The position numbers and the translations under genes are program-made. This document shows positions 41,918 through 64,000 of a stretch of 64,000 nucleotides of DNA, in pieces. The stretch is from Gammaproteobacteria bacterium (lineage in GTDB: Bacteria; Pseudomonadota; Gammaproteobacteria; JBCCGL01), in the NCBI GenBank assembly GCA_965277715.1, contig OZ255836.1:288001-352000 (forward strand), read 5' to 3'. Under the pieces are notes generated by a model. It saw nothing but the letters and a program-made list of their open reading frames with translations, was not told the origin of the DNA and ran no database searches. Within the stretch, counting starts at the first letter, position 1, and every line of letters begins with the position of its first letter.

Positions 41918-41918
41918 C

Positions 41919-45490: not shown

Positions 45491-45855
45491 CGGCCCGTTA
45501 TTTACGGCCATCGCTCGATATTCCAAAGGTGTTTTTATACCGAGAGGCGGTGGACTTTCGTAAGCAAAGCAATGGCCTTGCGGCCATTGTTGAGCGAGAG
45601 CTGGGTCACAACCTGTTTGAGGGTGGCTTATACGTGTTCACCAACCGCCACCGCAACAAAATCAAGTGTCTGATGTGGGAGGACAACGGCTTTGTACTGT
45701 ATTACAAAGCCTTGGCCGAAGAGCAGTTTAAGTGGCCTGACCTCGATGAGGAAATCATTTCACTGACCGGCACACAAATAAATTGGTTGCTTGATGGCTA
45801 TGATTTAGCCGCAATGAAAGGCCACAAAGTATTGCATTACGAATCTGTTTTTTAG
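45487..45855 (+). CDS. tnpB: IS66 accessory protein TnpB
   Basis: VDFRKQSNGL, LYVFTNR, FKWP. Confidence 0.93.
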   Translation: MTARYLRPSLDIPKVFLYREAVDFRKQSNGLAAIVERELGHNLFEGGLYVFTNRHRNKIKCLMWEDNGFVLYYKALAEEQFKWPDLDEEIISLTGTQINWLLDGYDLAAMKGHKVLHYESVF

Positions 45856-45922
45856 CCTGCTAAAGGGTGAAAAAGTGTTTAATTTTAATGATCTTTAGAC
45901 AGCTATTTGGTATTATTACGCG

Positions 45923-47551: not shown

Positions 47552-47573
47552 AGGCTGGTTTAAGGGCGCTTAC

Positions 47574-47843
47574 AAACAATGGCTGGATAAGCATATTACT
47601 AAGGTGGCTAAAAAGTCCCTTACTCGTAACGCCATGGACTATGCACTGAATCAATGGCATACCCCCACAAGCTACTGTGATGATGGACGGTTACACATCA
47701 GCAACGTGCTGGCTGAAAATGCCATTAGGCCTTTTGCCGTGGGTAGAAAAGCCTGGTTGTTTGCCGATTCAACCCGTGGCGCCCATGCCAGTGCCACATG
47801 TTACTCATTGATCGAAACGGCCAAAGCTAATGGGCTTGAACCC
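47574..47843 (+). repeat. Duplicated internal tnpC segment (copy of 47174-47443)
   Basis: Near-identical 270-bp sequence directly after the IS66 right end. Confidence 0.9.
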
Positions 47844-49371: not shown

Positions 49372-49382
49372 GGGTCTGAGCA

Positions 49383-52300
49383 CAATACCGCTACCTCAGG
49401 TTTAACCCAATGAATCTTTTAGCCTCTGAGACCCCCTGTGTCAGGCTAGTTGTCCCCCTCCCTAAATTGGGATTCAATAAGTTATTACAGGAGGCAAAGA
49501 GAGAGATATGGGTTATCCAATAGAAAGAAAGGCCGCTGTTTTAAAGAAGATGCTGCCGCCGAACAATCAGACAATTTCCCGGTTAGCCAAAGAAGAAGGC
49601 ATTGCACAAGGTACGCTTTATAGTTGGCGAGCCCAAGCAAGAGCGAAAGGCGAACTCATGCCAGATGGCGATTTGACACCAGCAGGTTGGGGTTCTTCGG
49701 ATAAGTTTGCAGCGGTTCTGGAAAGTGCGTCATTAAGCGAAACAGACCTTTCAGCTTATTGCCGTCATCGTGGTTTGTACCCTGATCAGATTAAGGCATG
49801 GCGAATGGCTTGTGAACAAGCCAATGACTGGGATCGCGCCCAAACGAAACGTTTACAAACCAGTCGTAGAGAAGCGGATAAACGTATTAAACGTCTCGAA
49901 CAAGACCTGCACCGAAAGGAGAAAGCGTTAGCCGAAACAGCCGCTTTGCTGGTGCTTAGAAAAAAGGCCCAAGCGATCTGGGGGGAGGTAGAGGACGAAT
50001 GACCTGCCATTCAGATCGCCAAAATAGTATCCGTTTAATCAAAGAGGCCGTTGTCGCTGGCGCTACATTAAGCAAAGCGTGCAAAGTGCTTGAGTGACAC
50101 CCTAAGACGTACCGACGCTGGGCAAACGCGGGTACTGTCCGTGCTGATGGCAGACCCACTGCCCATCGACAGGCGCCTAGTAATAAGTTCACAACAGAAG
50201 AGCGGGCATTGATCGTCACCACTTGTAATGAAGCGAAATACCAAGCGCTACCCCCCTCGCAAATTGTGCCCAAATTGGCGGATGAAGGTGTGTATATTGG
50301 GTCAGAGTCAAGCTTCTATCGGGTGTTAAAGTCGGAAAACCAACTGCAGCGGCGAGGTAAGGCGGCGGCGCCTAAAAAACGGCACAAACCTAACAGCTAC
50401 CTGGCATCAAGGCCAAACGAGGTGTGGTCTTGGGATATTACCTTTTTGAAATCGAACATAACCGGGTGGTTTTACCGGCTTTACATGATGATGGATATTT
50501 ACAGTCGTAAAATTGTTGCCTGGGAAGTGCATGACAGTGAATCGGCTGATCTGGCAGCGGCGCTGATCCAGCGTGCCTGTTTAGCGGAGGGGTGCAGCCA
50601 AAGTCAATTGGTATTACACGCGGATAATGGTGGCCCGATGAAAGGTGCTACCATGTTAGCAAAACTGCAATGGTTGGGTGTGATACCTTCGTTTAGCAGG
50701 CCATCGGTAAGCGATGATAATCCTTATTCAGAAAGTCTGTTTAGAACCTTAAAATACACGCCTGCCTATCCGTCAAAGCCATTTGATAGTTTAGCCTCTG
50801 CCCGAAACTGGGTGCATGGATTTGTGCAATGGTACAACGGCTCTCATTGCCATAGCGGCATTGGGTTTGTGACACCAACCTCACGTCATAAAGGCGAAGA
50901 CCACGCGATACTGGCAGCCAGAAAAGCAGTTTATGAACAAGCAAAGGCCAAACACCCTGAACGCTGGAGTCAGGATATTAAACACCTCGAACCGGTATCG
51001 GGGGTGTGGTTAAACCCGGAAAAGGAAGGCTTGACCATGAGACAAAAGCACAATGGAATTGAAAAGCAAGTAGCATAGTAAAACGGACAACTACCTTGAC
51101 AAACACCGGAGAGGCCTTGATACGAGGTTCAGTTAACAGTGGGTAGGCTTTTGGTCGTCGTTTAATTGCCCTTGGTTGGGGTGATCGTTTTCTCCTGCCA
51201 ATTAACGTTGAAGCGATTATCCTTAATAAGGAAGTGTACGCTTTTTGTATCATACTGGATGTTGAATGGATGAATTTAATATGAGCAATACCCAGTAGCT
51301 GTACCGTTGCCTTAAAACTTATTTGACGTGCTACTTCACCCTCTGTTTTTGCTGACTCTGCCATACTACCCCGAATCAGGTTATAAGCCATAAAGGTTGT
51401 TGCTATTTCTTTTTCAACCATCTCGGGTGAATGGCATCGCAACATATCCATTTTCAAATCTGTTTTAATTGTACGAAAATCCAATTCAACTTTCCAACGT
51501 TCCTTATACAGTGTTGAAAGCTCTTTCTTAGGGTAAGTATCAACCTCCAACAAAGTGCTAACATAGACTGTCCCATCCACTGAAAATTCTCGAACTGTCA
51601 GTGTTTTCGGCAATAGATCAAAGTCTGATTGCGACATCCAAACCGGTTTTCTTTTAGGTTTTTTCCACTCGATAAGATGATCTTTTGCACCAAGCGTTAA
51701 CCCTGTTTTGTAATCCGCTTTCTTTTGTGCGTGATTCATTGAGACGAATGCAACCCCTTTCGATTGTAGAGCCGCTAAGACAGCATAAGTACAGTAATAG
51801 CGGTCTGCCAGTAACAGATCATTGGCGGTTAATGACGTCATCAGGGTACTGAATAATGACATTTCCCCTGTTCCCTTTCCTTGATACTCTCCCATCGCAT
51901 AATCAATAATAGCACCAGAACTTAAAGAAATGAGTCCGACTATTCGAGCAATAGGAAAACCTAAACCCGGTTTTTGAGTCTGTTGCTGGGGGTATTTATG
52001 TTGATTTTTCTGGGTATCAGGCATGAGAACAGTGGTTCCATCCACAAGCACCACATTATACCCTTTCCATGTCCAAATTTTACCTGCTCTGGCATGTAAC
52101 GTTGAACCGATTGAACGTACCTCCTGAAGTACCCACGACAGAGATAAACGTTGACGGGCTTTACAGTAAGGACCGCTATTAAAAGAACTTGGAAGCAGGT
52201 TTTCCTGTAAACGATCAACTAGCAGACGGGCGACTGTTTCTTTACAACTGCCATTATCACTTAACACCTGCCAGAGAAATAAACGCAGTGTAACAAGTGG

Positions 52301-52592
52301 GGTGAATACCCGGTCTCGATAGCTGCCCGATAGTTCGCTTAGGTCGTTTAGACGCTTGGAACAGAGTAAATTATTAAAGTCTCCTGTGTCTAACTGAAAA
52401 AAAACACGTTTGATCGTTTTAATTTGCTGTCGGATAGTGAATTTCATAGAATAGGTCAGCGTTAGGTTTTTTGGCGAAGTACTTGTGTGTTTTGTCGCTT
52501 ACAAGGATACTTCAAAAGGAAACCTAACGTTACCCATCTATATGACTTTTAACGTTATTTTAGTTCTTCACCAGGCTGAGGTAGCGGTATTG
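49383..52592 (-). mobile_element. IS4-family element, copy 2, interrupted near the transposase 3' end by IS3
   Basis: Same IRs at 49383 and 52576-52592; transposase from 52447 near-identical to copy 1. Confidence 0.93.
49432..51108 (+). mobile_element. IS3-family element (orfA 49508-50002; orfB 49999-51078 with early TGA)
   Basis: Imperfect 24-bp IRs, 4-bp TSD GAGA, WSWDIT, HADNG, DNPYSESLF. Confidence 0.92.
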
Positions 52593-52599
52593 GTGCTAG

Positions 52600-53451
52600 G
52601 GCCTGTTGACGTTTGGCTATAAGCTTTTGAAACAAAAGGCAAACTCGTATCATTGGATGTGATAAAAACAACAAATACGAGTTTGCCATGCCCCGATTAT
52701 TGCTCAACGATGAGTATTGGTCGAAGCTACGGAGTATCATGCTTAAAGAAGGCATTTATGACAAGCCGAAGTTACGGTTAGTCGTTGAAGGAATTCTTTA
52801 TCGATTGCGTGTGGGGTGTCCGTGGCGAGATTTACCGGCGTCATTTGGTGACTGGAATAGCGTTTATAAACGCTTCAATGACTGGTCATCAAAAGGCAAG
52901 TTAATGAACATTTTCCATGTGCTTGTCGAAGAACCCGATCAAGAATGGGCATTTATTGATGGAAGTATTGTGAAGGCACACCAACATAGCGCAGGGGCTA
53001 GAGGGCATGAAAATCAAGCCATTGGCAACAGTCGAGGCGGGAAAACAACGAAAACACACATGATTGTAGATGGGTTTGGGTTGCCCGTATTATTTGACAT
53101 CACTGCTGGGCAGGTTAATGACTCCACAGCGGCTCCTGAATTGATTGATGCCTTGCCAAAAAGCGAGTATGTGGTGGCTGACAAAGGGTATGACAGCGAG
53201 GCGTTACGCCATCAGATCAGACAGAAAAAATCAGTTCCGGTTATTCCACGGCGAAGCAACTCAAAAATAGGCAATGAGGATATCGACTGGTGTTTATACA
53301 AATACCGACACCTGGTTGAAAATGTGTTTGCTCAATTGAAGCATTTTCGATCGATTGCCACCCGATATGATAAGTTGAAGCGGAATTATCGGAGCATGCT
53401 CGCCTTGGCATGCTCCTTTCTTTGGTTATCCATGTGAAACGTCAACAGGCC
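52600..53451 (+). mobile_element. IS5-family element, intact (transposase 52688-53437)
   Basis: IRs GGCCTGTTGACGTTT / AAACGTCAACAGGCC, CTAG on both sides; GCPWRDLP, IDG, ADKGYD, IATRYDK. Confidence 0.95.
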
Positions 53452-53524
53452 CTAGGTCTTGTCGTGAAACTTAGACAACTTGAAAGAGGTTTATCTTTAC
53501 ATTTATTCCTTTTATTTCAATGCT

Positions 53525-54139
53525 TTAATTTATTTTTGTCCTGTACAGAGCAAGATTCGTCAGGTCTTCCTCTAAAAGCAACCGTACTCTTTCAATTTGC
53601 CTGGTTAACGCCGACACCAGCTCCAGGGCTAAAGTGGTAAACCTGTGTTTGCGGCCCTTGCCATTCCAGATACGAAGCTGTAACAAATCCATATCAACAT
53701 CATGTACACGTAAACGTACAGATTCCATGCGACGTAACCCAGACCCATATAGGATACCGATTATTAGTTTGTATTTAGGGTCAACATGTTTAAGTAGACG
53801 GCTGACTTCACTTTGTGTACGCACCACGGGTAGTTTTGCCTGGCGACTTGCACGTTTAAATTCCACCATTTCTCCCAAAGGCTGTTCGAGAAAGCGGTTG
53901 TACAAAAATACCAGCGCATTCAGCGCCACCTGCTGCGTGGCAATAGCAATCGTGCGGTTGATGGCCAAGCGCGACAAAAAACGGACGACATCTTGCTCTC
54001 CCATTTCCTGAGGGTGTCGGTTGTGGTGGAAACGAATATAGGAACGAATCCAGGTGATATAAGCCGAGATTGTGCGCTTACTGTAATGCCGCACCAACAT
54101 GAACTCGTAAAGAGACTACAAAAAGGGCGACTTGTACAC
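53525..54139 (-). pseudogene. intI: Integron integrase IntI, inactivated
   Basis: HYSKRT..Y..WI, HPQEMG, TQQVALNALVFLY, LPVV, YGSGLR, GKGRKHR; GTG start with RBS, TAG at codon 8, homology ends near 53551 before the HxxR and catalytic Tyr; divergent from the cassette array. Confidence 0.93.
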
Positions 54140-54342
54140 GTATAAATCCTTGTAAAGCAGAGAGTGTTATATGATAATCCAAAACCAAAGGTTTAGGGAG
54201 TCGTTCCAGCATTTTTTTGTCTGTTATTTGCGATTTTCGTAGGGTTTTGTCATGTTAATTAATACTTTAGTGTGTCTTTATGAACTCAGTCTCGCGAAAT
54301 TATCGCGATTCCACATAATATTGTTATCGAGGATTCGTTCCT

Positions 54343-54361
54343 CGATAACAGGCTGTTAGCA
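54343..54361 (+). other. Putative attI simple site (L CGATAAC, 5-bp spacer, R GTTAGCA)
   Basis: GTTAGCA is complementary to the first attC R'' (TGCTAAC); located between intI and cassette 1. Confidence 0.7.
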
Positions 54362-54368
54362 TCAATAA

Positions 54369-55058
54369 ATGGCAGACAACGCGATGGCAGAAGGTACAAA
54401 TGGGAAGCTGTGGGCAGTCATTCTGACCGGTGCATTCGCTCTTGCGGGTACAGTAGTAGGTGGATGGCTAGAAGCACAATCCAAAATAAGCCTTGAAAGG
54501 ACAAAATTAGATTCAAGCATTATTTCTCTTGCCTTGTCCCAAAAAACAAAACAAGAACGCCAAGACTTTTTAGAGTTTCTAGTGGATACAAATTTAATCA
54601 AAGATGATGCCACTAAAGAAGGCCTAAGGGGCTATTTTGGAGGGCCAGAAGCAAAATCGCCTCCTTTTTTAGCGCCTGAAACCAACACTCCTCTTACTAA
54701 GCGAACTTCAGAAAACACTCAAAACACGGATATAGATTTCTTTGTCTGCGCAAAAGACCTCGAGAATCCCGACATTATCAATCTAGCAAGAAAGTCGCAT
54801 GCTGCAATTTCAAGCGCCGGTGATTTCGGTGAAAGTATCTACAAAGAATGGGGAGGAGATCTTTATAAAGAAGTTGCAGAGGGTGAATTAAAAGGGAAAG
54901 TAACTGTAATAATGGACTTCGACCATCCGGAATATGGTGAGAGGCAAAAAATTGAAAAACGCTTAAAAAGCGTTTCTAACCAATTGCCTGTATTTTTCCT
55001 GGACAATAGGGTAGAACTTAGCCCCTGGAGAGTCAGCGTAGTTTTTTGTGCGAGCTAA
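54369..55058 (+). CDS. Cassette 1: hypothetical protein with N-terminal TM helix
   Basis: 229-aa ORF filling the cassette. Confidence 0.8.
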   Translation: MADNAMAEGTNGKLWAVILTGAFALAGTVVGGWLEAQSKISLERTKLDSSIISLALSQKTKQERQDFLEFLVDTNLIKDDATKEGLRGYFGGPEAKSPPFLAPETNTPLTKRTSENTQNTDIDFFVCAKDLENPDIINLARKSHAAISSAGDFGESIYKEWGGDLYKEVAEGELKGKVTVIMDFDHPEYGERQKIEKRLKSVSNQLPVFFLDNRVELSPWRVSVVFCAS

Positions 55059-55061
55059 AGA

Positions 55062-55134
55062 TGCTAACAATCACATCCAGCCGACCCGAAAACCGCTGCG
55101 CGGTTTTCGGGTCGGCTGATGTGAAGCGTTAGGT
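55062..55134 (+). other. attC1 (73 bp)
   Basis: TGCTAAC...CCGACCCGAAAACC/GGTTTTCGGGTCGG...GTTAGGT. Confidence 0.95.
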
Positions 55135-55152
55135 GAAACTTAGGCTATTCCC

Positions 55153-55539
55153 ATGAAATTAAAATTTTTCATCGTCATGCTTTGTTTGTCCAGTAATGTC
55201 TATGGCCTTGAGCTTTCTAAAGAAATACCAAAGAATTTCCACGGGAGGTGGGCAGATCATCCAGATAACTGCGCATTTATCGAGATGATTGGATCATATC
55301 ATCCCAATTCCATGAAGATTGACTCTAATTCAATTACCTATTTTGAAAGTGGTGGGAAAGCTGCTGCAATTGTTTCTCGAAAAAGAAATGAGGTCGCAAT
55401 GATTTTCGATTTCCATAGTGAAGCAGATAAGTTTATTTACTTTAAACACTTTTCGCTGTCTGAAGACGGTAACAAGCTTTATGATTATTCCAAATATGAA
55501 TCAAGCAAAGAAATTTATTTTCGGTGTGCAAAGGAATGA
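55153..55539 (+). CDS. Cassette 2: exported hypothetical protein
   Basis: Signal peptide; IPKNFHGRW..C motif. Confidence 0.8.
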   Translation: MKLKFFIVMLCLSSNVYGLELSKEIPKNFHGRWADHPDNCAFIEMIGSYHPNSMKIDSNSITYFESGGKAAAIVSRKRNEVAMIFDFHSEADKFIYFKHFSLSEDGNKLYDYSKYESSKEIYFRCAKE

Positions 55540-55546
55540 AGGACTC

Positions 55547-55621
55547 ACCTAACAAGGGCATGCAGCCGGATCAAAATGCCCGCTACGCGCTCATTTTGAC
55601 CGCTGATGCCAAGCGTTATAT
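55547..55621 (+). other. attC2 (75 bp)
   Basis: ACCTAAC...TCAAAATG/CATTTTGA...GTTATAT. Confidence 0.95.
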
Positions 55622-55634
55622 TTTAGGAGTATTC

Positions 55635-56018
55635 ATGAGGTTTTTACTATTTTCAGTTCTTGCTCTAGTTGTTTCAACAGGAGCGTTTGCAAACGAAGCA
55701 GCTGACCTTCGCCTTAAAGGTGTACAAGCTGCATCAACCGGAGATTATACAACCGCTCAAAAGCATCTCCGTCAAAGTGCTGAGTTGGGCTACTACACCG
55801 CCCAAGTAGAGTATGCTTACCTTCTTGAATCTAGCCCTGAAAATATTCAAAACAAGCTTGAATCTTACGCTTGGTATAATGTAGTTATCACACAAAAAGG
55901 TACGGATACAGTATTTGCTAAAGAGGGTTTGGCTCGTTTATCTAAACTCATGTCAGTATCCGAGATTGAGCATGCAAAACAATTAACTGCAAAGTATATT
56001 GAGCAATATGCTAAGTAA
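55635..56018 (+). CDS. Cassette 3: exported Sel1-like repeat protein
   Basis: AGGAG RBS, signal peptide, SAELGYYTAQ and ESYAWY motifs. Confidence 0.75.
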   Translation: MRFLLFSVLALVVSTGAFANEAADLRLKGVQAASTGDYTTAQKHLRQSAELGYYTAQVEYAYLLESSPENIQNKLESYAWYNVVITQKGTDTVFAKEGLARLSKLMSVSEIEHAKQLTAKYIEQYAK

Positions 56019-56020
56019 AA

Positions 56021-56135
56021 ATATAACAATTTGCTCCAGTTGGCGCAGCGGTCTACGCGATTTTTGTGTATTCGCTGCGCTCAATAATCACACAAAAACA
56101 CTACAACCGCTGCGCAACTGAGCAAGGCGTTATGT
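56021..56135 (+). other. attC3 (115 bp)
   Basis: ATATAAC...TTTTTGTGT/ACACAAAAA...GTTATGT. Confidence 0.93.
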
Positions 56136-56148
56136 GGCCCGAGCAACA

Positions 56149-56643
56149 ATGAATAACTTCATTGTCCTAGTCTCATTATTGTTAACTTTGAGCGGATGCG
56201 TCTCTGTAGAACAGCAACGAGTGAACATCGAAAGTAATATTGCTGAAGTTTATACGGTTCACTATAGCGAGGAAATCCAACAGTTCTTTATTGAGGAGGC
56301 TATCAATGCTGGTGTAAGAACTATCCGAGCGATGAAACCATCTGAGAAACGTCAAAGCTCTAATAAAAACGAAATCGTCGGTTGTGCTTATGCAGACATT
56401 TGGAGAAAGCTCATTTTAATCGAAGTTAACCAGCCACTGTGCACAAAACTATCGCACTTGGCTCATGAAATCGCCCATATTGGTTCAAACTGCGGTGCTC
56501 ACGATAGCGTGTTTTATAAGTACAACTTTGCAATAGCAAAGCGATATGAAGCGGAGTTTCCTAATGCAGCCACAAGAAAATGGTTCGCACCAGTACAGAG
56601 TGTCGCAAACGTTGAGGCAATATATAGAAATGGGAGTTGTTAA
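56149..56643 (+). CDS. Cassette 4: lipoprotein with zincin HExxH motif
   Basis: Lipobox LSGC; LAHEIAH followed by H..F as in SprT-like/minigluzincin peptidases. Confidence 0.75.
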   Translation: MNNFIVLVSLLLTLSGCVSVEQQRVNIESNIAEVYTVHYSEEIQQFFIEEAINAGVRTIRAMKPSEKRQSSNKNEIVGCAYADIWRKLILIEVNQPLCTKLSHLAHEIAHIGSNCGAHDSVFYKYNFAIAKRYEAEFPNAATRKWFAPVQSVANVEAIYRNGSC

Positions 56644-56675
56644 TTTTTCGTGACCCAGGATGAAACCCAATTGCC

Positions 56676-56750
56676 ACATAACAAACGTATGCAGTCGGAT
56701 CAAAATGTTCGCTACGCTCTCATTTTGCCCGCTGATGCGAGGCGTTAAGC
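56676..56750 (+). other. attC4 (75 bp, related to attC2)
   Basis: ACATAAC...CAAAATG/CATTTTG...GTTAAGC. Confidence 0.95.
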
Positions 56751-56775
56751 TTCAAAACATATAAATAGAGAGTGT

Positions 56776-57432
56776 ATGTTGAAAATAGTCGTTTTATCTT
56801 TGATCATATTTGTAACAGGCTGCGCGACAAATTCGCTTGCCCCAACCCCTGTAACTCAATCAGATTTGAGTGCGACCCAAGGAATTCTAGTTGGAAGTTT
56901 TTCTAGAGACCCAAGTGGGCCAAACTATTACAGCCAAACTTTCCGTTTCAAGAATGTCTTAACCGATGAAGATCATCGAATAACCTCTCAACCAACCTTC
57001 AATATGTTTACCGGCAAGACTCCCGACGACTTTAGGACACCAAATAGTAACGGTGGTGTGTTTGTATTTTCATTACCTGCAGGAGAATACATTTTTCACA
57101 ATTTTCGTTTATATCAATCAAACGGTTACTTTGAGCAAAACTGGACTTCTAAAGAACCATATGCGATTCCATTCGTTGTTCAGCCGAATAAAGTAAATTA
57201 CGTTGGGGAAATAAAACTCATACCTCATACAGGAAAAAACTTTTTTGGGATGCAAATACATGCTGGAGGAATATGGGTGATAAACGAACAATGGGATAGA
57301 GATATAGAGGTCCTATCAAGAAAGCACCCAGAAATTCCATTAGAGGAAATCGTTAATGTTATTCCAAACAAAAAAGATATTTTTACTCCACTAGTAGTTC
57401 TTCCTTCAGAAACAGAAGAGTTTAACAAGTAA
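56776..57432 (+). CDS. Cassette 5: hypothetical lipoprotein
   Basis: Lipobox VTGC; LPAGEY..VNYVGEI beta-sandwich pattern. Confidence 0.8.
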   Translation: MLKIVVLSLIIFVTGCATNSLAPTPVTQSDLSATQGILVGSFSRDPSGPNYYSQTFRFKNVLTDEDHRITSQPTFNMFTGKTPDDFRTPNSNGGVFVFSLPAGEYIFHNFRLYQSNGYFEQNWTSKEPYAIPFVVQPNKVNYVGEIKLIPHTGKNFFGMQIHAGGIWVINEQWDRDIEVLSRKHPEIPLEEIVNVIPNKKDIFTPLVVLPSETEEFNK

Positions 57433-57489
57433 GTCGTGCGGGACATTTCACCGCTGCGCGCCTCATGCCCCACACCCTAAGCGTTATGC
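57420..57489 (+). other. attC5 (70 bp, somewhat degenerate)
   Basis: GTTTAAC...GTTATGC with imperfect internal stem. Confidence 0.8.
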
Positions 57490-57533
57490 AAAATAAGTTG
57501 TGAATCGTACTAATAATTGAATTGGAGAAATGA

Positions 57534-58436
57534 ATGAAGAAAATTTATATGCTTTCAATGTTAGTGGCTGGGTTGCTAATTTCGACATTAGCCACTGCAG
57601 CTCCTAAATTTCCGATACAAGAGCCCATGGGCGGGAAGGCCTTTGGTCATAGCGTAAAAAACATTGGTAATGGGTTGTATGTATTTCGCTGGTGGGTTTA
57701 TCGAAATATTTTTCTTGTCACTGATGAGGGAGTTATTGTTACCGACCCAATGAACCCCAAGGCGGCAAAATTATTACGAAACGAGATTCGTAAGGTAACA
57801 GACAAGCCGGTGAAATATGTTGTTTATAGCCATAATCATCATGATCATATTTCAGGTGGGAATGTTTTTGAGGCAGAGGGTGCAAAATTTGTGGGCCATG
57901 AGAACCTGCTAAAGGAATTGGGCGATCATCCGAGTCCAGTAATACCATTGCCAAGTATCACATTTTCAGACAAGCACACATTGACACTGGGTGGTAGAAC
58001 TTTGGAATTATCCTACTTCGGGCCAAACCATGGTGAAAGCTTGGTTGTTATGCGGCTTCCGAAAGAGAAGATATTATTTACGGTAGATATTGTCACGCCG
58101 CGTAGAGTGGCCTTTCGTGGCATGCCCGATTTTTGGCCTGATGAGTGGGTAAGGTCACTGAAAGAAATAGAGCAGATGGATTTTGACTATGTCATCTCGG
58201 GCCACGGGCCAGAAAATCAACCTGCAATAGATCCTGCCTCAATTGTTGCAGAGCAACGCATATATTTAGAAGATTTGATGGCAGCTGTAAAAAAAGCAAT
58301 GGATTCAGGAACTCACAGCCCTGATGCATTAAGAAAAACCGTTAAGCTTCCTAAGTATGAAAACTGGCAATACTACAAAGAATGGCTCCCAATGAATATT
58401 GAGCGCATATGGACTTATTATCATATGGGATGGTGA
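57534..58436 (+). CDS. Cassette 6: exported MBL-fold metallo-hydrolase
   Basis: Signal peptide; SHNHHDH, PNHG, TVD, SGHG metal-ligand motifs. Confidence 0.9.
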   Translation: MKKIYMLSMLVAGLLISTLATAAPKFPIQEPMGGKAFGHSVKNIGNGLYVFRWWVYRNIFLVTDEGVIVTDPMNPKAAKLLRNEIRKVTDKPVKYVVYSHNHHDHISGGNVFEAEGAKFVGHENLLKELGDHPSPVIPLPSITFSDKHTLTLGGRTLELSYFGPNHGESLVVMRLPKEKILFTVDIVTPRRVAFRGMPDFWPDEWVRSLKEIEQMDFDYVISGHGPENQPAIDPASIVAEQRIYLEDLMAAVKKAMDSGTHSPDALRKTVKLPKYENWQYYKEWLPMNIERIWTYYHMGW

Positions 58437-58445
58437 TAGCCAATG

Positions 58446-58494
58446 GCATAACAATGCATTGCACCGGGCTTCGCCGGTGAATGCGGCGTTATGC
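58446..58494 (+). other. attC6 (49 bp)
   Basis: GCATAAC-AATGC-ATTGCACC-GGGCTTCGCC-GGTGAAT-GCGGC-GTTATGC. Confidence 0.9.
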
Positions 58495-58512
58495 GACCTC
58501 AAGAATCAAAAT

Positions 58513-58896
58513 ATGATTAAAAAATTATTTACAGTAGATCTTTACATTAAAATCAGAAAAAATAGATTCGAAGCCAAGAACTTATCGTCTAACAGCATTT
58601 GGGAAACTATTCATTCGGAGCTACCGTTTACAACCGAGAGGTTACTGGTTGGTACTTTTTCGGCTGCCGAGCCAGCTTTAACTAAGCTGATGAAAGATAT
58701 TATTCCTAATGGTCTATTTAAAAAGAATCCTCAAGTAGTGGTTCAGCCAATGGAGTTAGTTCACGGCGGGTTATCGGAGGTCGAGGAGCGCACATTTAAA
58801 GAGCTAGCACTTGGCTCAGGTGCTTTTAAAGTAGTGTTACACACTGGCCCTGAGCTAACTGACAGTAAGGCAGTAAAATTAATACACAGCACATAA
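58513..58896 (+). CDS. Cassette 7: YjaA-like protein
   Basis: LYIKIRKN, FTTERLLVG.F..AE, GGLSEVEER resemble E. coli YjaA. Confidence 0.7.
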   Translation: MIKKLFTVDLYIKIRKNRFEAKNLSSNSIWETIHSELPFTTERLLVGTFSAAEPALTKLMKDIIPNGLFKKNPQVVVQPMELVHGGLSEVEERTFKELALGSGAFKVVLHTGPELTDSKAVKLIHST

Positions 58897-58978
58897 CAAA
58901 GCCAAGCACAATCGTACAATGCAAAAAACGCATTGCACTGGACCTCGCTTTGTTCGGCCTGTGTTGGCGGCGTTATAC
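58891..58978 (+). other. attC7 (88 bp)
   Basis: ACATAAC...GTTATAC, GCCAAGCACA/TGTGTTGGC. Confidence 0.9.
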
Positions 58979-59010
58979 GTACTTTAATTCAGGTTACAAC
59001 TGGAAGAATA

Positions 59011-59322
59011 GTGGAAATAATAAGAAGTAAAGAATTCAGATCTGATCGTGCTTGGGGCGCAAAAAATATCTCCAATATGAATGGAATTACGACTAAGTTG
59101 CATTGGACGGACCAGCCTTATAAATGGCACATTAACGATGGCGAAGAAGTATTTGTTGTTTTAGATGGTATCGTTGTGATGCTTTATAAAGAGAATGGTA
59201 TCGAAAAATCTACCACACTAAATGCGGGAGATATATTTTTTGCATCGGTAGGTACTGAACACGTGGCTCGCCCAAAGGGGGAGGCTAGAATTCTAGTTGT
59301 AGAGTCAGAGGGTAGCGTATAA
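59011..59322 (+). CDS. Cassette 8: cupin-domain protein
   Basis: WHINDGEEVFVVLDG..GTEH. Confidence 0.88.
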   Translation: MEIIRSKEFRSDRAWGAKNISNMNGITTKLHWTDQPYKWHINDGEEVFVVLDGIVVMLYKENGIEKSTTLNAGDIFFASVGTEHVARPKGEARILVVESEGSV

Positions 59323-59430
59323 CAAAGCTATCGTAGGGACTTTTGTTGCTGCGCTTCGTTTTGGGGTGGCTTCGCCACTGTACCCCAAAACTACACTACA
59401 CAACAAAAGCCCCACATAGCGGCGTTATGC
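59317..59430 (+). other. attC8 (114 bp)
   Basis: GTATAAC...CTTTTGTTG/CAACAAAAG...GTTATGC. Confidence 0.92.
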
Positions 59431-59442
59431 AGAAGGGTAACT

Positions 59443-59807
59443 ATGAATTTAATTGCGTACTTTTTTTTGGTTTCGCAGCAATGTCCTTTCTAGGGATATT
59501 TGTAATGCCTGGAGGTTTTGGCGTTTCAATATTCTATATTTTTATGGTCGGGCTTTGGTACCAAACAGGTGCAAGTTTTCTTAAGAGAAAAAAGTGGGCA
59601 TGGTGGGTATCGCTAATATTGATATTACTCATCTGCGTGGGTAGTTTTGCTTCTGTATGGTCAACTATTATTGAGCCTCTTTTCAACTCTAGTGTTAAGG
59701 GTGTAGGTTTTGGTCGTTGGCTTTCGCTAGCAATCCTTTGTTTAGCTGAGTACTTAATAGTTTTATTGTTTAACACGAGTACTAGGCAGGCTTTTAAAAA
59801 TGCATAA
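59443..59807 (+). pseudogene. Cassette 9: 4-TM membrane protein, frameshifted at a T8 run
   Basis: RBS plus ATG 59443 is out of frame by one T; T9 would give MNLIAYFFFGFAAMSFLG; an alternative ATG at 59481 lacks an obvious RBS. Confidence 0.65.
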
Positions 59808-59858
59808 CAATACGGTCAAGGGGACGCAAAAAACGCGCCGCTTACCTCGGCGTTAGGC
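59802..59858 (+). other. attC9 (57 bp)
   Basis: GCATAAC...GTTAGGC. Confidence 0.88.
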
Positions 59859-59879
59859 AGGCACACACAGAGATGACCA

Positions 59880-60096
59880 TAAGAGTTTCAAGTAATGGAC
59901 GATTATTACAGGCGTTTCAGTTGAAACACTCCCCCGCTCTAACGCGGAGCAGTCGACCAACACATCGGGATAATAGTAGTTGTTTTCTACCTGTACTTTC
60001 ATATTCGATGAAAATGGCTGGCAGGGACCATTTTTCACATGATTTCTTATTTCTCCAAAAACATTTCCGGTTATTTGGTTATGCTCCAGCTTGGCA
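59880..60096 (-). pseudogene. Cassette 10: antisense Uma2-family endonuclease remnant
   Basis: EHNQITGNVF..CQPFSSNMKV..YYYPDVLVDC..PVIIV; N-terminus lost at the IS junction. Confidence 0.75.
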
Positions 60097-61483
60097 GGGT
60101 ATGACCTTAATTTAATGTTATGGAGATATTCAGTATAATATGATTGTGATCAATTAGAGTGTTTTAGAGATGAATGCTAGCATAGTAGAACAAAACGATA
60201 CGCATTTTACCGTACAAGTTAAAATTGCTTATAGTAGCAGCATGCTAGATTTTGAAGAGGCAATACAGACAGGAGTTAATGAGGTAGGAGCAGTATCTAC
60301 CCAGGAGGCCTTGTCACAATTTGACGCAGATGGTTCACCTATAATAGTGGGCAGCACTAAATTTACCAGCAAGGGTAAAGAATCAAAAATATATCAAACG
60401 CCTTATGGAGCAGTAGATATACAACGCCATGTTTATCAAGGTTCAAAAGGGGGAAAGACGTATTGCCCTGTTGATGCCAATGCCCGTATTATCATTTCCT
60501 CGACCCCCAAATTTGCCAAGATGGTCTCTTCAAAATATGCCGACCTTGGTGCATCGCGTGTTAGAGCTGACCTTGAAGAAAACCATAGTAGAAAAGTGGC
60601 ACGTTGTTTTATACAAGATATCGCTGAGGCGGTGAGTGCGGTGGTTACGGCTAAGGAAGCACAGTGGAACGATGAGCTGCCCAAGATGGCCTATCCGGTG
60701 AAAACGGTATCGATAGGGATGGATGGTACTTGTATGCTGCTTTGCAATGAAGGCTATCGTGAAGCAATGGTGGGCACCATTGCTTTTTATGACAAAAAGG
60801 GTGATAGACAACATATTACCTATATGGCGGCTACGCCTGAGTATGGCAAGGAGACCTTTTTGGGGCGTTTTGAACAGGCGATCATCAAAGTAAAGAAGTA
60901 CTACCCTGATGCCCACTATGTAGGAATTGCTGATGGTGCGAAATGTAATTGGCCTTTTTTAAAGCGACATACTCATACCCAAACAATCGACTTTTGGCAT
61001 GTGAGCGAATACCTTGGAAAAGCCGCTCATGTGATGTTTCATGGAAAAAGAAACGCGTTAGATAGGAGTGAATGGCTTGATCAATCTTGCCATAAGCTAA
61101 AGCACTGTGTGGGTTCGGCAACGCGGTTACTGAACGAAATGGTGGCTTTTGGCAATAACAGTGATCTATCGAAAGAGAAACGAAATGCCCTTAATTCTGT
61201 TATCACCTATTTTACAAACAACAAAGATAAGATGAAATATGCTCATAATGTAAAAAATAGCTTACCCATTGGTTCGGGTGTAACGGAAGCGGCTTGCAAG
61301 GTGATTGTGAAACAACGGTTATGTGGTTGTGCAATGAAGTGGAAAGAAAAAGGGGCGGCAGCCGTGTTAGGTTTACGCTGCATAAACTATAGTACTGGTA
61401 GATGGCAGCAGTTTTGGCAAAAGGTCGGTCAATTTGGTTTGCCTATCGCCGCTTAAATACAACATCAAATTAAGGTCATACCC
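60097..61483 (+). mobile_element. ISKra4-family element (transposase 60170-61456)
   Basis: IRs GGGTATGACCTTAATTT / AAATTAAGGTCATACCC; MDG, ADGA, DFWH, PIGSGVTEAACK. Confidence 0.92.
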
Positions 61484-61488
61484 TCTGT

Positions 61489-61593
61489 TCCTAACGAGGC
61501 CAGCAAATCTGACCTCCGTAAACTGTCTTCTTTTTTGCAAAAACACGCAAAAAAGCAGCCAATTCACTCCGGCAGTTTCTGGCGGCGTTAAAT
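61489..61593 (+). other. attC10 (105 bp)
   Basis: TCCTAAC..GCCAGCAAA/TTTCTGGC..GTTAAAT. Confidence 0.85.
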
Positions 61594-61603
61594 GGCAATT
61601 CGG

Positions 61604-61882
61604 ATGAGTAAGGTAGTCTTAATTTCAGAGGGTGGATATAGCTCGGAATATGATGAATTGTTATTGTCATTTCTAGATCACAAGTTCGAGCTATTTTGCG
61701 CCGTAGGTAAAGATTGTGAACTTTGGGAGGATGTAATGGATGAATTGGCTGTTGGTAATGGCGAAAACCCTAGATTCATTACAACTACTAGTCATCCCGA
61801 TGAATCAATTGAAAACGTAATAGAGTTTGCCAAAATGTTTACCACAAAAACAAAAGGCGAGGTTCAAGTTGTTCGCATTTAA
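61604..61882 (+). CDS. Cassette 11: small acidic hypothetical protein
   Basis: ORF ends in R''; FCAVGKDCELWEDVMDE and TTSHPDES. Confidence 0.8.
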   Translation: MSKVVLISEGGYSSEYDELLLSFLDHKFELFCAVGKDCELWEDVMDELAVGNGENPRFITTTSHPDESIENVIEFAKMFTTKTKGEVQVVRI

Positions 61883-61972
61883 CAAAGCAATCTTGCCTCG
61901 TTCGCTGCGCTCACTGGACCTCCGTTTCGGTGCTTCGCACCTACACTACGGCCGCAAATTGCGGCGTTATGT
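61877..61972 (+). other. attC11 (96 bp)
   Basis: ATTTAAC..GCAATCTTGC/GCAAATTGC..GTTATGT. Confidence 0.9.
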
Positions 61973-61980
61973 GTAAAAAC

Positions 61981-62310
61981 ATGGATGCGAAGCAGATACA
62001 AAAAAAACTAGATGACCTCGGTATCGAGGAGAGACTAAATCTGCTGATAGGTTACGGTCACCAACTGACGATAATGTGCCGAGATGCTTACGAATTTCAA
62101 GGCCCTGGTGTTACGGATCCCCGTTTGCTTAGGGACGCAAATGAAATTCAACATAGAGTTTATCAAGCTATTCGTGAGCTGACCCAAGGTGAAAGCAATG
62201 GGTTTTCAGTAAATGGTATTTCTAATTGGATTTCTGCGAAAGAAAGAAATGAAAAAATTCAAAGTGCAAGTATTGAAGCATTCAAATGGGCGATCCAGAA
62301 ATACACATAA
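61981..62310 (+). CDS. Cassette 12: hypothetical helical protein
   Basis: 109-aa ORF filling the cassette. Confidence 0.78.
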   Translation: MDAKQIQKKLDDLGIEERLNLLIGYGHQLTIMCRDAYEFQGPGVTDPRLLRDANEIQHRVYQAIRELTQGESNGFSVNGISNWISAKERNEKIQSASIEAFKWAIQKYT

Positions 62311-62376
62311 TAAGCGCATGCAACGGACTGCCAAACCGCTACGCGCTTTGTCAGCCGCTGATGCGAGGCGTTATGC
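62305..62376 (+). other. attC12 (72 bp) with non-canonical R'' (ACATAAT)
   Basis: GCATGCAACGG/CCGCTGATGC stem, GTTATGC. Confidence 0.85.
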
Positions 62377-62427
62377 TTCCCAAACTTTAAGTCTGTGCTG
62401 TTGAAAGGAAACTGATATTATTCACCT

Positions 62428-63285
62428 ATGAAAACTTCACTTGACCACCTGCCGGAACAGAAACAGCAGGAACTACAGCGAGCTGTGGAAATTATCCGTG
62501 AAGAGATCAATCCCGATATGCTCATTTTGTTTGGTAGTTATGCGCGTGGTGATTGGGTGGAGGATATAGACCTGGAAACCCTGCACTACCGTTATCAAAG
62601 TGACTTTGATCTATTGGTTGTTACAGAAACCCGGAAAGAAGCTAGTAAAATTGAGCAAAATAATCAACTCAATCAGCGTTTGATAAAAACCATCCACCGA
62701 ACTCCAATCAGCCTGATCGCGGAAGATATCCAATTTATTAACCGACGCTTAAGAAAGAGCCAGTACTTTTATATTGATATCAAGCGTGAAGGAATTGTGT
62801 TGTATAACTCAGGAGCATTTGAGTTAGTCGAGCCAAAGGAAATATCGCCAAGTGAGCGAAAAAAACTGGCAGAAGAGGATTTTGAATATTGGTTTATAAG
62901 TGCTAAAGAATATTTTCTCGATTTTAACGCACCATTTGATAGGAGTAACTATAATAATGCTGCATTTTTACTCCACCAAGTCACAGAGCGCCTTTACGGT
63001 ACAATTCTTTTAGTTTTTACCCGTTATAAACCTAGCACACATGATTTAGTAAAATTGGGTCAACGTGTAAGCAGCATTGAACCACAGTTTCTTACTGTAT
63101 TTCCACAAAGTACAGAAGAAGAAAAAAACCGCTTTAAAATTTTACGCAAGGCATATGTGGATGCTCGCTATAAACCCAGCTACATAATTACAAAAGAGGA
63201 GCTAAAATGGTTAGCAGAGCGGGTACAAAAATTACAAGTTTTAACAGAAAAACTGTGCAAAGAAAAAATTACAAGCTTTATATAG
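62428..63285 (+). CDS. Cassette 13: minimal nucleotidyltransferase-HEPN fusion
   Basis: LFGSYARGD..SDFDLL MNT motif; HEPN AAFLLHQ..E, THDL, AYVDARY. Confidence 0.9.
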   Translation: MKTSLDHLPEQKQQELQRAVEIIREEINPDMLILFGSYARGDWVEDIDLETLHYRYQSDFDLLVVTETRKEASKIEQNNQLNQRLIKTIHRTPISLIAEDIQFINRRLRKSQYFYIDIKREGIVLYNSGAFELVEPKEISPSERKKLAEEDFEYWFISAKEYFLDFNAPFDRSNYNNAAFLLHQVTERLYGTILLVFTRYKPSTHDLVKLGQRVSSIEPQFLTVFPQSTEEEKNRFKILRKAYVDARYKPSYIITKEELKWLAERVQKLQVLTEKLCKEKITSFI

Positions 63286-63300
63286 TCATGAAGCAAATAG

Positions 63301-63364
63301 GCATAACAATAGCTTCGTGTGGAACGCTCCGCGTTGCTGCGCGCCGCACAAGCAAGCGTTAGCA
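63301..63364 (+). other. attC13 (64 bp)
   Basis: GCATAAC..GCTTCGTG/CACAAGC..GTTAGCA. Confidence 0.88.
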
Positions 63365-63375
63365 CGATGAAAGAA

Positions 63376-63897
63376 ATGAAGAAAATTCTCACCTTAGTAT
63401 TAATGCTTGTTCCTCTTGTTTTATCTGCCGCTGAGTATCCGTCACTACTCAAAGTTCCGGTAGGCGAAAGATTTTCCCACCCTCAAGGGATGCAAAACAA
63501 AGATAAAGGTGGGCCTACAACTCAATTCCGAGTCCCAAATCATGGTAACATTTCATCTATTTTTCCTGAGTATTCAATTGCCTATTTAAATGCAACAGGT
63601 CACGTGGTAATAGTAACAGCAGAAAAGGCAGTTAAAAATTGGGAAGAATGTGAGAGCCTGGAAGAGAAGGCATCGCTGCTAATCAGTCAAGCATTTCCTA
63701 ACTATAAGAGTTCACCCGTTTCCAATAGTCAGCTTGGCGCTCCCGGCGAGTTTTCGTTAGAATCAGCAGATACTTACTACGTGCTTCGGTGTAAAGGTTC
63801 GTATGGCCCGTTTGCATACCTTCATTTTCAAATTCGCAGCAAGAGCCAAGATATAGAGTTAAAAAATGCATGGGATGAATACTTCAAAAAGCAATAG
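63376..63897 (+). CDS. Cassette 14: exported hypothetical protein
   Basis: Signal peptide MKKILTLVLMLVPLVLSA; alternative start 63367. Confidence 0.8.
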   Translation: MKKILTLVLMLVPLVLSAAEYPSLLKVPVGERFSHPQGMQNKDKGGPTTQFRVPNHGNISSIFPEYSIAYLNATGHVVIVTAEKAVKNWEECESLEEKASLLISQAFPNYKSSPVSNSQLGAPGEFSLESADTYYVLRCKGSYGPFAYLHFQIRSKSQDIELKNAWDEYFKKQ

Positions 63898-63978
63898 TGC
63901 TAACAAGGCGCTCAAAATCGCCCACAAAAAGCGTGGGCTGGGACGCGCTAACGCGCGCCCTTTAGTGCGACGTTAACT
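63898..63978 (+). other. attC14 (81 bp)
   Basis: TGCTAAC...GTTAACT with two internal hairpins. Confidence 0.9.
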
Positions 63979-64000
63979 GCCTACGAATGGAGAATCAATG

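Follow-up and report, generated by a model that had tools for sequence, protein, structure and literature searches.

The intI remnant, attI and the cassette array

The right end of a 64-kb stretch of contig OZ255836.1 from a gammaproteobacterium (positions 288,001–352,000, hereafter the window) carries an integron in the usual divergent layout. A remnant of the integrase gene intI is followed by the attI site and by at least 14 promoterless cassettes, each bounded by an attC site and holding a single open reading frame (ORF). The features around the remnant are listed below in window coordinates.

52596–53455, plus strand: IS5-family insertion sequence (IS) with perfect 19-nt terminal inverted repeats; 249-aa transposase at 52688–53437
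53456–53554: A+T-rich stretch of 99 bp between the intI break and the IS5-family element; the intI ORF runs into it and ends at 53525
53555–54139, minus strand: intI remnant, codons 1–195 of a 325-codon integron integrase gene, GTG start at 54139
54116–54118, minus strand: in-frame TAG at intI codon 8, Gln at the same position in the paralog P0121
54140–54354: intI–attI intergenic region, with a palindrome and promoter-like hexamers in both directions
54355–54361, plus strand: attI crossover heptamer GTTAGCA; cassette 1 starts at 54356

The remnant was delimited with P0121, an integron integrase (IntI) of 325 aa. In a tblastn search of the window, residues 1–196 of P0121 align to 54139–53552 on the minus strand, 184 of the 196 being identical. 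The homology ends past residue 195, at ∼53555. The reading frame (ORF 53525–54100) drifts on through unrelated sequence to a stop at 53525, and an earlier reading of the DNA from its letters (the first-pass annotation) had therefore placed the end of the ORF there. The missing half of the protein (residues 196–325) was sought by tblastn across the whole 64 kb and was not found, the next-best P0121 match having an E-value of 2.0. According to the alignment with P0121, the absent residues hold the IntI-specific segment, the HTLRH (HxxR) motif and the catalytic Tyr of IYTHV; Pfam identifies in the remnant the N-terminal SAM-like domain (SAM_4) and only positions 4–87 of the 172-position Phage_integrase profile. 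The TAG at codon 8 is also the terminator of the cassette 13 and cassette 14 ORFs, it is therefore an ordinary stop in this organism. Both lesions had been noticed in the first-pass annotation, the TAG at codon 8 and the cut before HxxR and the catalytic Tyr, and both were confirmed here. With its catalytic residues and the IntI-specific insertion gone, the window intI is not a functional integron integrase gene and, as judged from its sequence, cannot make an active tyrosine recombinase. Since only 195 of the 325 codons are left and codon 8 is a TAG, the platform is without a recombinase of its own.

The 99 bp at the intI break have no second copy in the window (blastn-short) and lie outside the inverted repeats of the IS5-family element. 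The transposase of this element scores 276 bits with the NCBIfam model transpos_IS5_3 (cutoff, 110 bits) and is also supported by Pfam. The element is the first of an IS nest that extends back to ∼39.9 kb. It abuts one IS4-family copy (51109–52593), which is 99.5% identical over 1,485 bp to another copy at 47888–49372; past the IS4 copies, the nest goes on with IS3, IS66 and IS fragments and reaches as far as a tRNA-Lys gene at 39730–39805. The adjacency of the nest suggests that the 3′ half of intI was lost in an IS-mediated event.

The attI site was analyzed by aligning the region upstream of intI with those of four related loci, L001, L003, L004 and L015. The reverse complement of the crossover heptamer GTTAGCA is TGCTAAC, which is exactly the R″ box of attC1. 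The CTAAC motif at attI aligns with the same motif in L001 and L003; together with an adjoining palindrome, it occupies the same position in the window and in all four relatives. As expected for the attI of a complete integron, the heptamer is thus complementary to R″ of cassette 1 and conserved in position, and the site appears conserved and intact. The palindrome (TGTTATCGAGG...CCTCGATAACA) is 29 nt in length (54322–54350) and both of its arms vary among L001, L003, L004 and L015; it is probably part of the integrase-binding region of attI. It was also scored as a terminator-like hairpin on the minus strand. Promoter-like hexamers are located at 54150–54178 on the plus strand (a possible Pc) and at 54327–54299 on the minus strand (a possible PintI). 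No LexA box (CTGT-N8-ACAG with at most one mismatch) was found in 54140–54355, and the whole window contains 22 such sites versus 18.7 expected.

The cassettes and the IS in cassette 10 are as follows.

54356–55128, plus strand: cassette 1; ORF 54369–55058 (229 aa); attC1 55062–55134 (73 nt)
55129–55615, plus strand: cassette 2; ORF 55153–55539 (128 aa); attC2 55547–55621 (75 nt)
55616–56129, plus strand: cassette 3; ORF 55635–56018 (127 aa); attC3 56021–56135 (115 nt)
56130–56744, plus strand: cassette 4; ORF 56149–56643 (164 aa); attC4 56676–56750 (75 nt)
56745–57483, plus strand: cassette 5; ORF 56776–57432 (218 aa); attC5 57420–57489 (70 nt)
57484–58488, plus strand: cassette 6; ORF 57534–58436 (300 aa); attC6 58446–58494 (49 nt)
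58489–58972, plus strand: cassette 7; ORF 58513–58896 (127 aa, YjaA-like); attC7 58891–58978 (88 nt)
58973–59424, plus strand: cassette 8; ORF 59011–59322 (103 aa, cupin); attC8 59317–59430 (114 nt)
59425–59852, plus strand: cassette 9; ORF 59427–59807 (126 aa, hydrophobic); attC9 59802–59858 (57 nt)
59853–61587, plus strand: cassette 10, an IS-interrupted remnant; attC10 61489–61593 (105 nt)
60096–61484, plus strand: ISKra4-family insertion sequence in cassette 10; 428-aa transposase at 60170–61456
61588–61966, plus strand: cassette 11; ORF 61592–61882 (96 aa, DUF7684); attC11 61877–61972 (96 nt)
61967–62370, plus strand: cassette 12; ORF 61981–62310 (109 aa, no family); attC12 62305–62376 (72 nt)
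62371–63358, plus strand: cassette 13; ORF 62428–63285 (285 aa); attC13 63301–63364 (64 nt)
63359–63972, plus strand: cassette 14; ORF 63367–63897 (176 aa); attC14 63898–63978 (81 nt)
63973–64000, plus strand: first 28 nt of cassette 15, following the G/TT of attC14; the array continues beyond the window

In 10 of the 14 cassettes, the leading heptamer is perfectly complementary to the R″ of its own cassette, with a single mismatch in each of cassettes 5, 7, 10 and 12; the R′ that physically adjoins R″ matches it in only 1/14. When the heptamers were permuted, the mean number of matches was 1.7 and none of 200,000 permutations reached 10, which bears out the count of the first-pass annotation. 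Complementarity to a cassette's own R″ is the footprint of the G/TT crossover, the cassettes are therefore discrete units inserted by an integrase. Like a complete integron, the locus has 14/14 attCs, spaced at 1.7 kb or less, and 13 of the 14 cassettes contain one co-oriented, plus-strand ORF that fills 0.89–0.99 of the non-attC part. Twelve of 14 cassette ORFs had earlier been taken as intact; the largely intact state of the array stands, and the count becomes 13/14 when a single plus-strand ORF is scored. The TAA stop is the TAA of R″ in cassettes 7, 8, 9, 11 and 12 (58894–58896, 59320–59322, 59805–59807, 61880–61882 and 62308–62310, respectively), and the R′ heptamer GTTATGC contains the ATG of cassette 9 (59427–59429); coding and recombination sequences thus overlap at both ends.

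attC sites and cassette contents

The attC sites were detected with covariance models of our own rather than those of IntegronFinder. Model R1 was built from six attCs of the window (attC1, 2, 4, 5, 12 and 13). At E < 0.05, it also found attC6, attC9 and attC7, i.e. 3 of the 8 window sites outside its own seed, and attC3 in part; in 80 loci around related intI genes of other genomes, it gave 82 matches at E ≤ 0.01. Model R2 was built solely from these 82 foreign attCs, and the window was searched with the filters off. R2 recovered all 14 sites at full length and on the intI strand, with E-values of 9.1e-15 to 4.3e-5 across the 64 kb. The ends agree for all 14, so the coordinates and lengths of the first-pass annotation were reproduced, and the rejection of most sites by covariance models, which would have refuted it, did not occur with our own models. 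With both strands searched, the next-best match in the window (E 0.4) was the opposite strand of attC1. As a control, R2 was run on the 80 related loci, where it gave 192 matches at E ≤ 1e-3; 192/192 share the strand of intI and lie upstream of its start, and a comparable amount of sequence downstream of intI gave none (coordinates compared by eye).

Several other approaches were discarded. One detector combining a regular expression with a constrained fold found 9/14 sites on the correct strand and 19 outside the array, mostly in G+C-rich genes, and was too unspecific. One filter demanding complementarity between R″ and the adjacent R′ retained no more than 4 true sites, R′ being part of the following cassette. 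MAFFT with RNAalifold on all 14 attCs gave 0 consensus pairs, because the lengths differ too much; six sites of similar length were used instead. Rfam at its gathering thresholds matched only the tRNA gene in the window and no attC family.

The conserved triplets are GTT in 14/14 attCs (R′, GTTRRRY) and AAC in 13/14 (R″, RYYYAAC). In attC12, the AAT at the end of R″ (62305–62311) gives one C-A mismatch within the R-box stem once the bottom strand is folded, owing to which cassette 12 may be hard to excise on its own. When the bottom strands were folded as DNA, nine of the 14 sites formed the canonical imperfect hairpin, with z-scores of −2.3 to −11.0. The predicted ensemble fraction with paired R box exceeds 0.1 in 12/14, under a constraint simpler than that of Loot et al. 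The consensus fold of attC1, 2, 4, 5, 12 and 13 contains one 5-bp R box, one unpaired spacer and one three-base apex; two bulges of one base each interrupt the 3′ arm of its stem on the bottom strand, and 7 of the 19 pairs show compensatory change. Paired R box, unpaired central spacer and extrahelical bases on the L″ arm, the hallmarks of an attC fold, are thus all present in the six-site consensus. attC4 is a destabilized copy of the attC2 type. Site by site, the R2 E-values and fold z-scores are 1e-11 and −11.0 (attC1), 9.1e-15 and −3.4 (attC2), 1.6e-8 and −6.9 (attC3), 9.8e-14 and −0.15 (attC4), 6.8e-11 and −0.88 (attC5), 7e-7 and −2.3 (attC7), 7e-8 and −5.1 (attC8), 4.5e-8 and −0.09 (attC9), 2.2e-6 and −5.2 (attC10), 1e-5 and −1.5 (attC11), 1.2e-11 and −4.2 (attC12), 1.5e-7 and +1.0 (attC13), and 4.3e-5 and −3.2 (attC14); the E-value of attC6 is 2.7e-9.

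The bottom strand carries the heptamer GC-GNA-GC in 10/14 window attCs and in 96/192 foreign attCs, the foreign frequency being inflated since those sites were gathered with models containing the motif. On the top strand, the heptamer is present in only 1/14 and 4/192, respectively; in short sites it is usually located at the hairpin apex. GNA triloops of the d(GCGAAGC) type form unusually stable DNA mini-hairpins, they would favour folding of the recombinogenic strand. Nivina et al. (2016) describe the bottom-strand terminal loop as a conserved 5′-GAA-3′ in most mobile-integron attCs (PMC5027507). One narrow literature search found no paper that treats attC, integron and triloop together.

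The window attCs are 49–115 nt in length and their mean pairwise identity is 0.55. Among 14 arrays beside related intI genes (at least six detected attCs each), the mean identity ranges from 0.536 to 0.735, and the window ranks third lowest of the 15. Many of these arrays sit on multi-megabase chromosomes, and clear homogeneity is confined to those of loci L052 and L001. The comparison errs on the cautious side, since any attCs missed in the relatives would most likely be divergent ones. Heterogeneous attCs are usual in this IntI clade and need no special explanation; the expectation of the first-pass annotation, by which a chromosomal integron should have homogeneous attCs and the present array would be odd, is not borne out. 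In Cury et al. (2016), homogeneity is reported to grow with array size, and sedentary and mobile integrons are described as grading into each other, not as two separate classes (PMC4889954). The view that only attC2 and attC4 are clearly related was too narrow as well: 11 of the 91 pairs have an identity of at least 0.65 (2–4, 0.81; 4–12, 0.79; 2–12, 0.77; 1–2 and 1–12, 0.71; 5–13, 0.70), and sites 1, 2, 4, 5, 12 and 13 form one family. The best foreign match of each window attC has an identity of 0.71–0.89, on a par with the best within the array; different genera therefore have attC types in common.

Judged by eye, a signal-peptide-like or hydrophobic segment opens at least 7 of the 13 cassette proteins. 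The cassette 1 protein has one N-terminal hydrophobic stretch and no family; its homologs are of 224 aa (71–84% identity, 97–98% coverage), plus one of 193 aa at 90%. The N-termini of the cassette 2 protein (by eye) and the cassette 14 protein, which belongs to no family, are signal-peptide-like, and the two ORFs fill 0.93 and 0.99 of the non-attC part, respectively; the fraction is also 0.99 in cassette 9. Cassette 3 gave only weak TPR/Sel1-like hints, with NCBIfam AlgK_TPR far under its cutoff. The cassette 4 protein has a lipoprotein-like N-terminus and one HEIAH motif of the HExxH type (by eye), and matched no NCBIfam family and no PDB entry. Cassette 5 encodes a member of one large, unnamed lipoprotein-like family without a Pfam model; 797 representatives at E ≤ 1e-3, mostly 205–230 aa in size, align end to end. 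The YjaA-like protein of cassette 7 scores 79.5 bits with NCBIfam stress_YjaA (cutoff, 125 bits) over profile positions 3–120 of 125. For cassette 8, whose GTG start was chosen by us, Pfam Cupin_2 gives 27.5 bits (cutoff, 27.2 bits), and for cassette 11 DUF7684 gives 26.4 bits (cutoff, 26 bits).

The cassette 6 protein is an exported-looking hydrolase of the metallo-beta-lactamase (MBL) fold with the metal motif HNHHDH (Pfam Lactamase_B, 2.4e-17). Its best PDB match is 8d2z, one uncharacterised structure of the MBL superfamily (1.1e-16), and it is distantly similar to subclass B1 enzymes (BlaB-1, E 1.2e-10). It stays under every NCBIfam cutoff: the best bla model, subclass B1, gives 66.3 bits versus 200 bits, and the best model overall, which is SoxH-related, 112.1 bits versus 280 bits. 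By these scores, cassette 6 is of the MBL fold only and is not a recognised resistance gene. Two relatives of 300 aa fall into its 90% cluster, and one close relative comes from a JGI metagenome; a second copy, apparently encoded on the same replicon, differs at 4/300 residues.

In the cassette 13 protein, one MntA-like nucleotidyltransferase is fused to HEPN; Pfam finds both domains, NTP_transf_2 and HEPN, complete. NCBIfam MntA gives 27 bits (cutoff, 60 bits), PDB entry 4nqf matches residues 139–282 (1.1e-17), and the PADLOC candidate PDC-S09 matches at 1.2e-8. MntA-type nucleotidyltransferases and HEPN proteins are usually separate partners of a type VII toxin-antitoxin pair. In a search of the 13 proteins for defence systems, PADLOC matched only this one, in its nucleotidyltransferase part. 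Cassette 10 retains one minus-strand ORF of only 61 aa (59853–60038) with a weak match to Pfam Uma2 (E 0.03, positions 51–87 of 172). Its ISKra4-family element has 24-nt inverted repeats that are 96% complementary, and its right end is 4 nt before the R″ of attC10. The transposase scores 195.4 bits with NCBIfam transpos_ISKra4 (cutoff, 205 bits); two further members of its cluster are apparently encoded on the same replicon. When 16 cassette and IS proteins were compared with the 80 related loci by tblastn, no match at E ≤ 1e-3 was obtained, cassette 7 being effectively outside the query set; to the extent of this search, the cassette content is not shared with the sampled relatives.

Other intI genes and the chromosomal setting

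The first-pass annotation had proposed looking for a second, intact intI, and one full-length gene product was indeed found, P0121, together with the shorter P0002, apparently in the same genome. P0121 covers positions 1–315 of the 315-position model TIGR02249 with 432.7 bits (cutoff, 265 bits), and its every catalytic motif aligns with those of intact relatives. P0002 is shorter (280 aa) and shares 98% identity with P0121; its sequence starts only at residue 46, and the Gly of LGH is replaced by Ser. The window proteins, including the IntI remnant (P0001), P0122 and the RuvB protein P0138, are encoded on one contig of 4,294,796 bp, and this replicon appears to encode P0121 and P0002 as well. 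The three IntI copies are 94–98% identical, the window copy being 94% identical to P0121 over the shared part, whereas the nearest IntI in our scan of other genomes' contigs is 73% identical at best; the three genes are therefore paralogs arisen within this lineage. Over residues 46–195, the window copy, P0002 and P0121 have 6, 2 and 1 private changes, respectively, a difference that is not significant (binomial P = 0.125). More than one IntI is reported for 22% of IntI-encoding genomes (PMC9024848).

[quoted passage not shown] Since attCs are recognised by structure and one near-identical, apparently intact IntI seems to be encoded in the same genome, both the cassettes and attI are probably usable in trans.

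The left 39 kb of the window contain fliE-J, one AddAB-like nuclease pair, one ABC transporter and yebC-ruvCAB-ybgC-tolQRAB-pal-cpoB; with these flagellar, ruv and tol-pal flanks, the setting is chromosomal. The RuvB protein is 75–78% identical to proteins named from Granulosicoccaceae, Candidatus Thiodiazotropha and Endothiovibrio; a closer relative, P0139, shares 99% identity with it and is encoded on a contig of 22,971 bp. The G+C content is 50–60% in this core (1–39 kb), 38–50% from the tRNA-Lys gene on, and 40–42% in the array. P0121 is less than 60% identical to every plasmid-borne IntI among the 5,000 best plasmid matches, and a search of 72,556 plasmids gave no DNA match to the 10.5-kb array. 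From these values and the chromosomal flanks, the integron does not appear to belong to mobile classes 1–5, as assessed on plasmid records rather than on class references. Nearly everywhere in the window, the plus strand has a positive GC skew; if it marks the leading strand over these 64 kb, the attC bottom strands lie on the leading-strand template. Loot et al. (2017) report this placement for 25 of 30 sedentary integrons (PMC5371416).

The tRNA-Lys(TTT) gene marks the switch in G+C, and the stretch from it to the array (39730–53455) consists nearly entirely of IS elements and their fragments. It contains two IS4-like copies, IS66, IS3, IS5 and IS5 fragments, one Phd/YefM antitoxin gene and one DUF2726 gene; the IS66 element carries one internal duplication of 274 bp (47173–47446 and 47573–47846). 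Traces of decay and of IS traffic are also found in the core. One carbamoyltransferase fragment (13271–13981) comprises no more than the last part of the N domain and the first part of the C domain, IS1595-type pieces are split between 10243–10911 and 16115–16825, and one IS5-family fragment (15405–16057) is 95% identical to one beside intI. Two PIN-domain genes and one MazE-like antitoxin gene are located at 7906–9086. The idea that the cargo survived while the neighbours decayed holds in part, as a description of the mostly intact ORFs, which selection may have kept or which may just be young; the array itself is worn, with one IS-hit cassette (cassette 10), the AAT of attC12 and poor folding of 5/14 attCs.

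Origin of the array and comparison with known systems

Taken together, these observations indicate that the locus is very probably a chromosomal integron platform that lost its own recombinase and left the array orphaned. The array would have been built by IntI-mediated attI × attC insertion, because the first six bases of the cassettes still pair with their own R″, as the G/TT crossover predicts. The cassettes would have been drawn from a pool common to marine and sediment Gammaproteobacteria, and the platform would then have been disabled by point mutation and by rearrangement at the IS nest. By the definitions of IntegronFinder, applied to attCs from our own models, the locus would be a CALIN with a neighbouring intI pseudogene: 14 attCs are clustered, and the only intI in the 64 kb lacks the part targeted by the intI_Cterm profile. 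On present sequence, it is not a complete integron, on account of the integrase; the array itself would operate as in any other integron.

Several points weigh against this account. The involvement of IS elements is read from their adjacency to the intI break, whose 99-bp partner has no second copy in the window. Because R2 goes back to the window through its seed, R1, its independence is incomplete; the E-values it gives are approximate. The promoter scan of the intergenic region gave 2 sites versus 2.1 expected in shuffled sequence, which is no evidence of function. The intactness of the ORFs relative to homologs was established for 5 of the 13 only (cassettes 1, 5, 6, 7 and 13). The R″ of attC12 reads ACATAAT, with AAT in place of AAC; the folds of attC4, 5, 9, 11 and 13 are no better than those of dinucleotide-shuffled sequences (z −1.5 to +1.0), and the paired-R-box fractions of attC11 and attC13 are 0.006 and 0.07, respectively, so that some attCs may already be poor substrates. 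Finally, P0121 and P0002 were placed on the same replicon by deduction, not from coordinates.

How far the orphaned array is still in play is the question on which the explanations differ most. It is quite possible, if somewhat short of probable, that the locus is a relic without any rearrangement since the death of intI, the other integrases being silent, non-cognate or defective and the time too short for decay. Nothing points directly to cassettes having moved of late, and cassette 10 still holds its IS undisturbed. The wear of the attCs (AAC to AAT in attC12, the low folding probability of attC11 and attC13, the weakened attC2-type copy attC4) agrees with such a state, and P0002, by its start at residue 46 and its Ser in LGH, looks like at least one other damaged copy; in Xanthomonas, inactivated intI is likewise reported to go with stable arrays (PMC12444791). 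However, P0121 is full length with all catalytic motifs aligned, attI is conserved, and the R box is predicted to pair in 12/14 attCs. The two copies of the MBL-fold protein, at 4/300 differences, are also closer than the intI copies, at 9 substitutions in 195, which would be in line with later movement and, just as well, with a tighter constraint on the enzyme. With a full-length IntI apparently encoded on the replicon, a conserved attI and these predicted folds, the cassettes would still be substrates for excision and reinsertion in trans, and the array is probably dormant and not permanently frozen, a reading with about even odds. Where the first-pass annotation left the choice between freezing and shuffling in trans, the precondition for the latter appears to be in place (full-length P0121, besides the shorter P0002), and the chance that in-trans activity has actually occurred since the inactivation is, from the sequences, about even. 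We consider it possible, but doubtful, that the genome holds one distributed integron, in which IS-driven duplication produced at least three platforms, two of them disabled, P0121 serves the orphan attI and arrays in trans, and cassettes such as the MBL-fold gene move between arrays. If this were true, orphan arrays would be extra storage, shielded from the cis-preference of their own integrase.

Two further explanations were considered. It is improbable that the array is part of one recently imported, low-G+C island at tRNA-Lys, which brought a mobile-type integron into the chromosome. Such an import would explain heterogeneous, short and efficiently folding attCs, and the G+C does fall at the tRNA-Lys gene, in front of a stretch packed with IS4, IS66, IS3 and IS5 elements and toxin-antitoxin genes; as given by Cury et al., ∼67% of chromosomal integrons were classed as mobile in species with pan-genomes (PMC4889954). 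Against the import speak the lack of a plasmid match for the array, the distance of the IntI from every plasmid-borne IntI found, and a scan of 48 upstream ORFs, in which neither a transposition module nor an island integrase came up. Moreover, the three intI copies are far closer to one another than to any other intI found, which points to duplication within the lineage, and the attC bottom strands lie on the suggested leading-strand template, as in most sedentary integrons of Loot et al. (PMC5371416). That similar intI copies and multi-copy IS elements misled the assembler, and that the real locus has an intact intI, is highly improbable. The genome does contain misjoin-prone repeats (the two IS4-like copies, several IS5 and ISKra4 elements and, apparently, three intI paralogs), and for integrons flanked by IS elements the Xanthomonas study cautions that assemblies may be wrong (PMC12444791). 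The break, however, lies in sequence unique in the window, 99 bp from the IS5 end and not at a repeat boundary; the remnant has its own TAG and six private residues in 46–195, it is therefore a distinct locus; and the contig is one single piece of 4.29 Mb.

The orphaned platform illustrates a known way for arrays to end: the first-pass observation was accurate, and the surprise it implied is absent. Its importance is modest, as a clean example of the passage from complete integron to orphan cassette cluster through point mutation and rearrangement beside an IS nest, an origin that Cury et al. proposed for some CALINs and rarely documented. The textbook rule ‘chromosomal = homogeneous, mobile = heterogeneous’ is not usable to flag oddities in this IntI clade. 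Owing to the paralog, which looks intact, the locus lends itself to testing whether orphan arrays are serviced in trans, should the complete genome and the organism or its DNA be at hand.

Like other CALINs, the locus is an attC array without functional intI, with one intI remnant beside it, IS elements nearby and a genome that apparently encodes IntI elsewhere. In the survey of Cury et al., 15 of 279 CALINs had an intI pseudogene nearby, a fourth of the complete integrons contained IS elements, and half of the CALINs were on replicons that also encode IntI; the average CALIN has 5 attCs (PMC4889954). Different from that average, the window array has at least 14; its remnant keeps the N-terminal 60% of intI beside an apparently intact attI, so that the origin by decay is explicit rather than guessed. 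The same survey treats integrons as sedentary when they are present in 100% of the genomes of a species or have more than 19 attCs (PMC4889954); 14 are seen here in an array cut by the window end. In Xanthomonas, chromosomal intI genes have been disabled by stops, frameshifts, deletions and truncation while their arrays persist (Gillings et al. 2005, as cited in PMC12444791), and some of the loci are described as surrounded by transposases (PMC12444791). The present locus shares the inactivated intI, the persisting array and the transposases around it. It differs in IntI clade and host and in the coexistence of near-identical further intI copies, and it is one window rather than a strain series.

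Like the Vibrio cholerae superintegron, the locus is chromosomal, its cassettes are mostly of unknown function, its IntI is of the gammaproteobacterial chromosomal type, and its attC bottom strands lie, by GC skew, on the leading-strand template. Vibrio arrays comprise more than 100 cassettes, and their repeats are nearly identical, whereas the window shows at least 14 cassettes, heterogeneous attCs (0.55; 49–115 nt) and a dead integrase. With mobile class 1-type integrons, it shares short attCs, the three-base apex, GC-GNA-GC on the bottom strand of most sites, a heterogeneous array and the high predicted folding probability of most attCs. Different from them, its IntI is less than 60% identical to plasmid-borne integrases, its DNA has no plasmid match, and it contains neither a transposon backbone nor a recognised resistance cassette.

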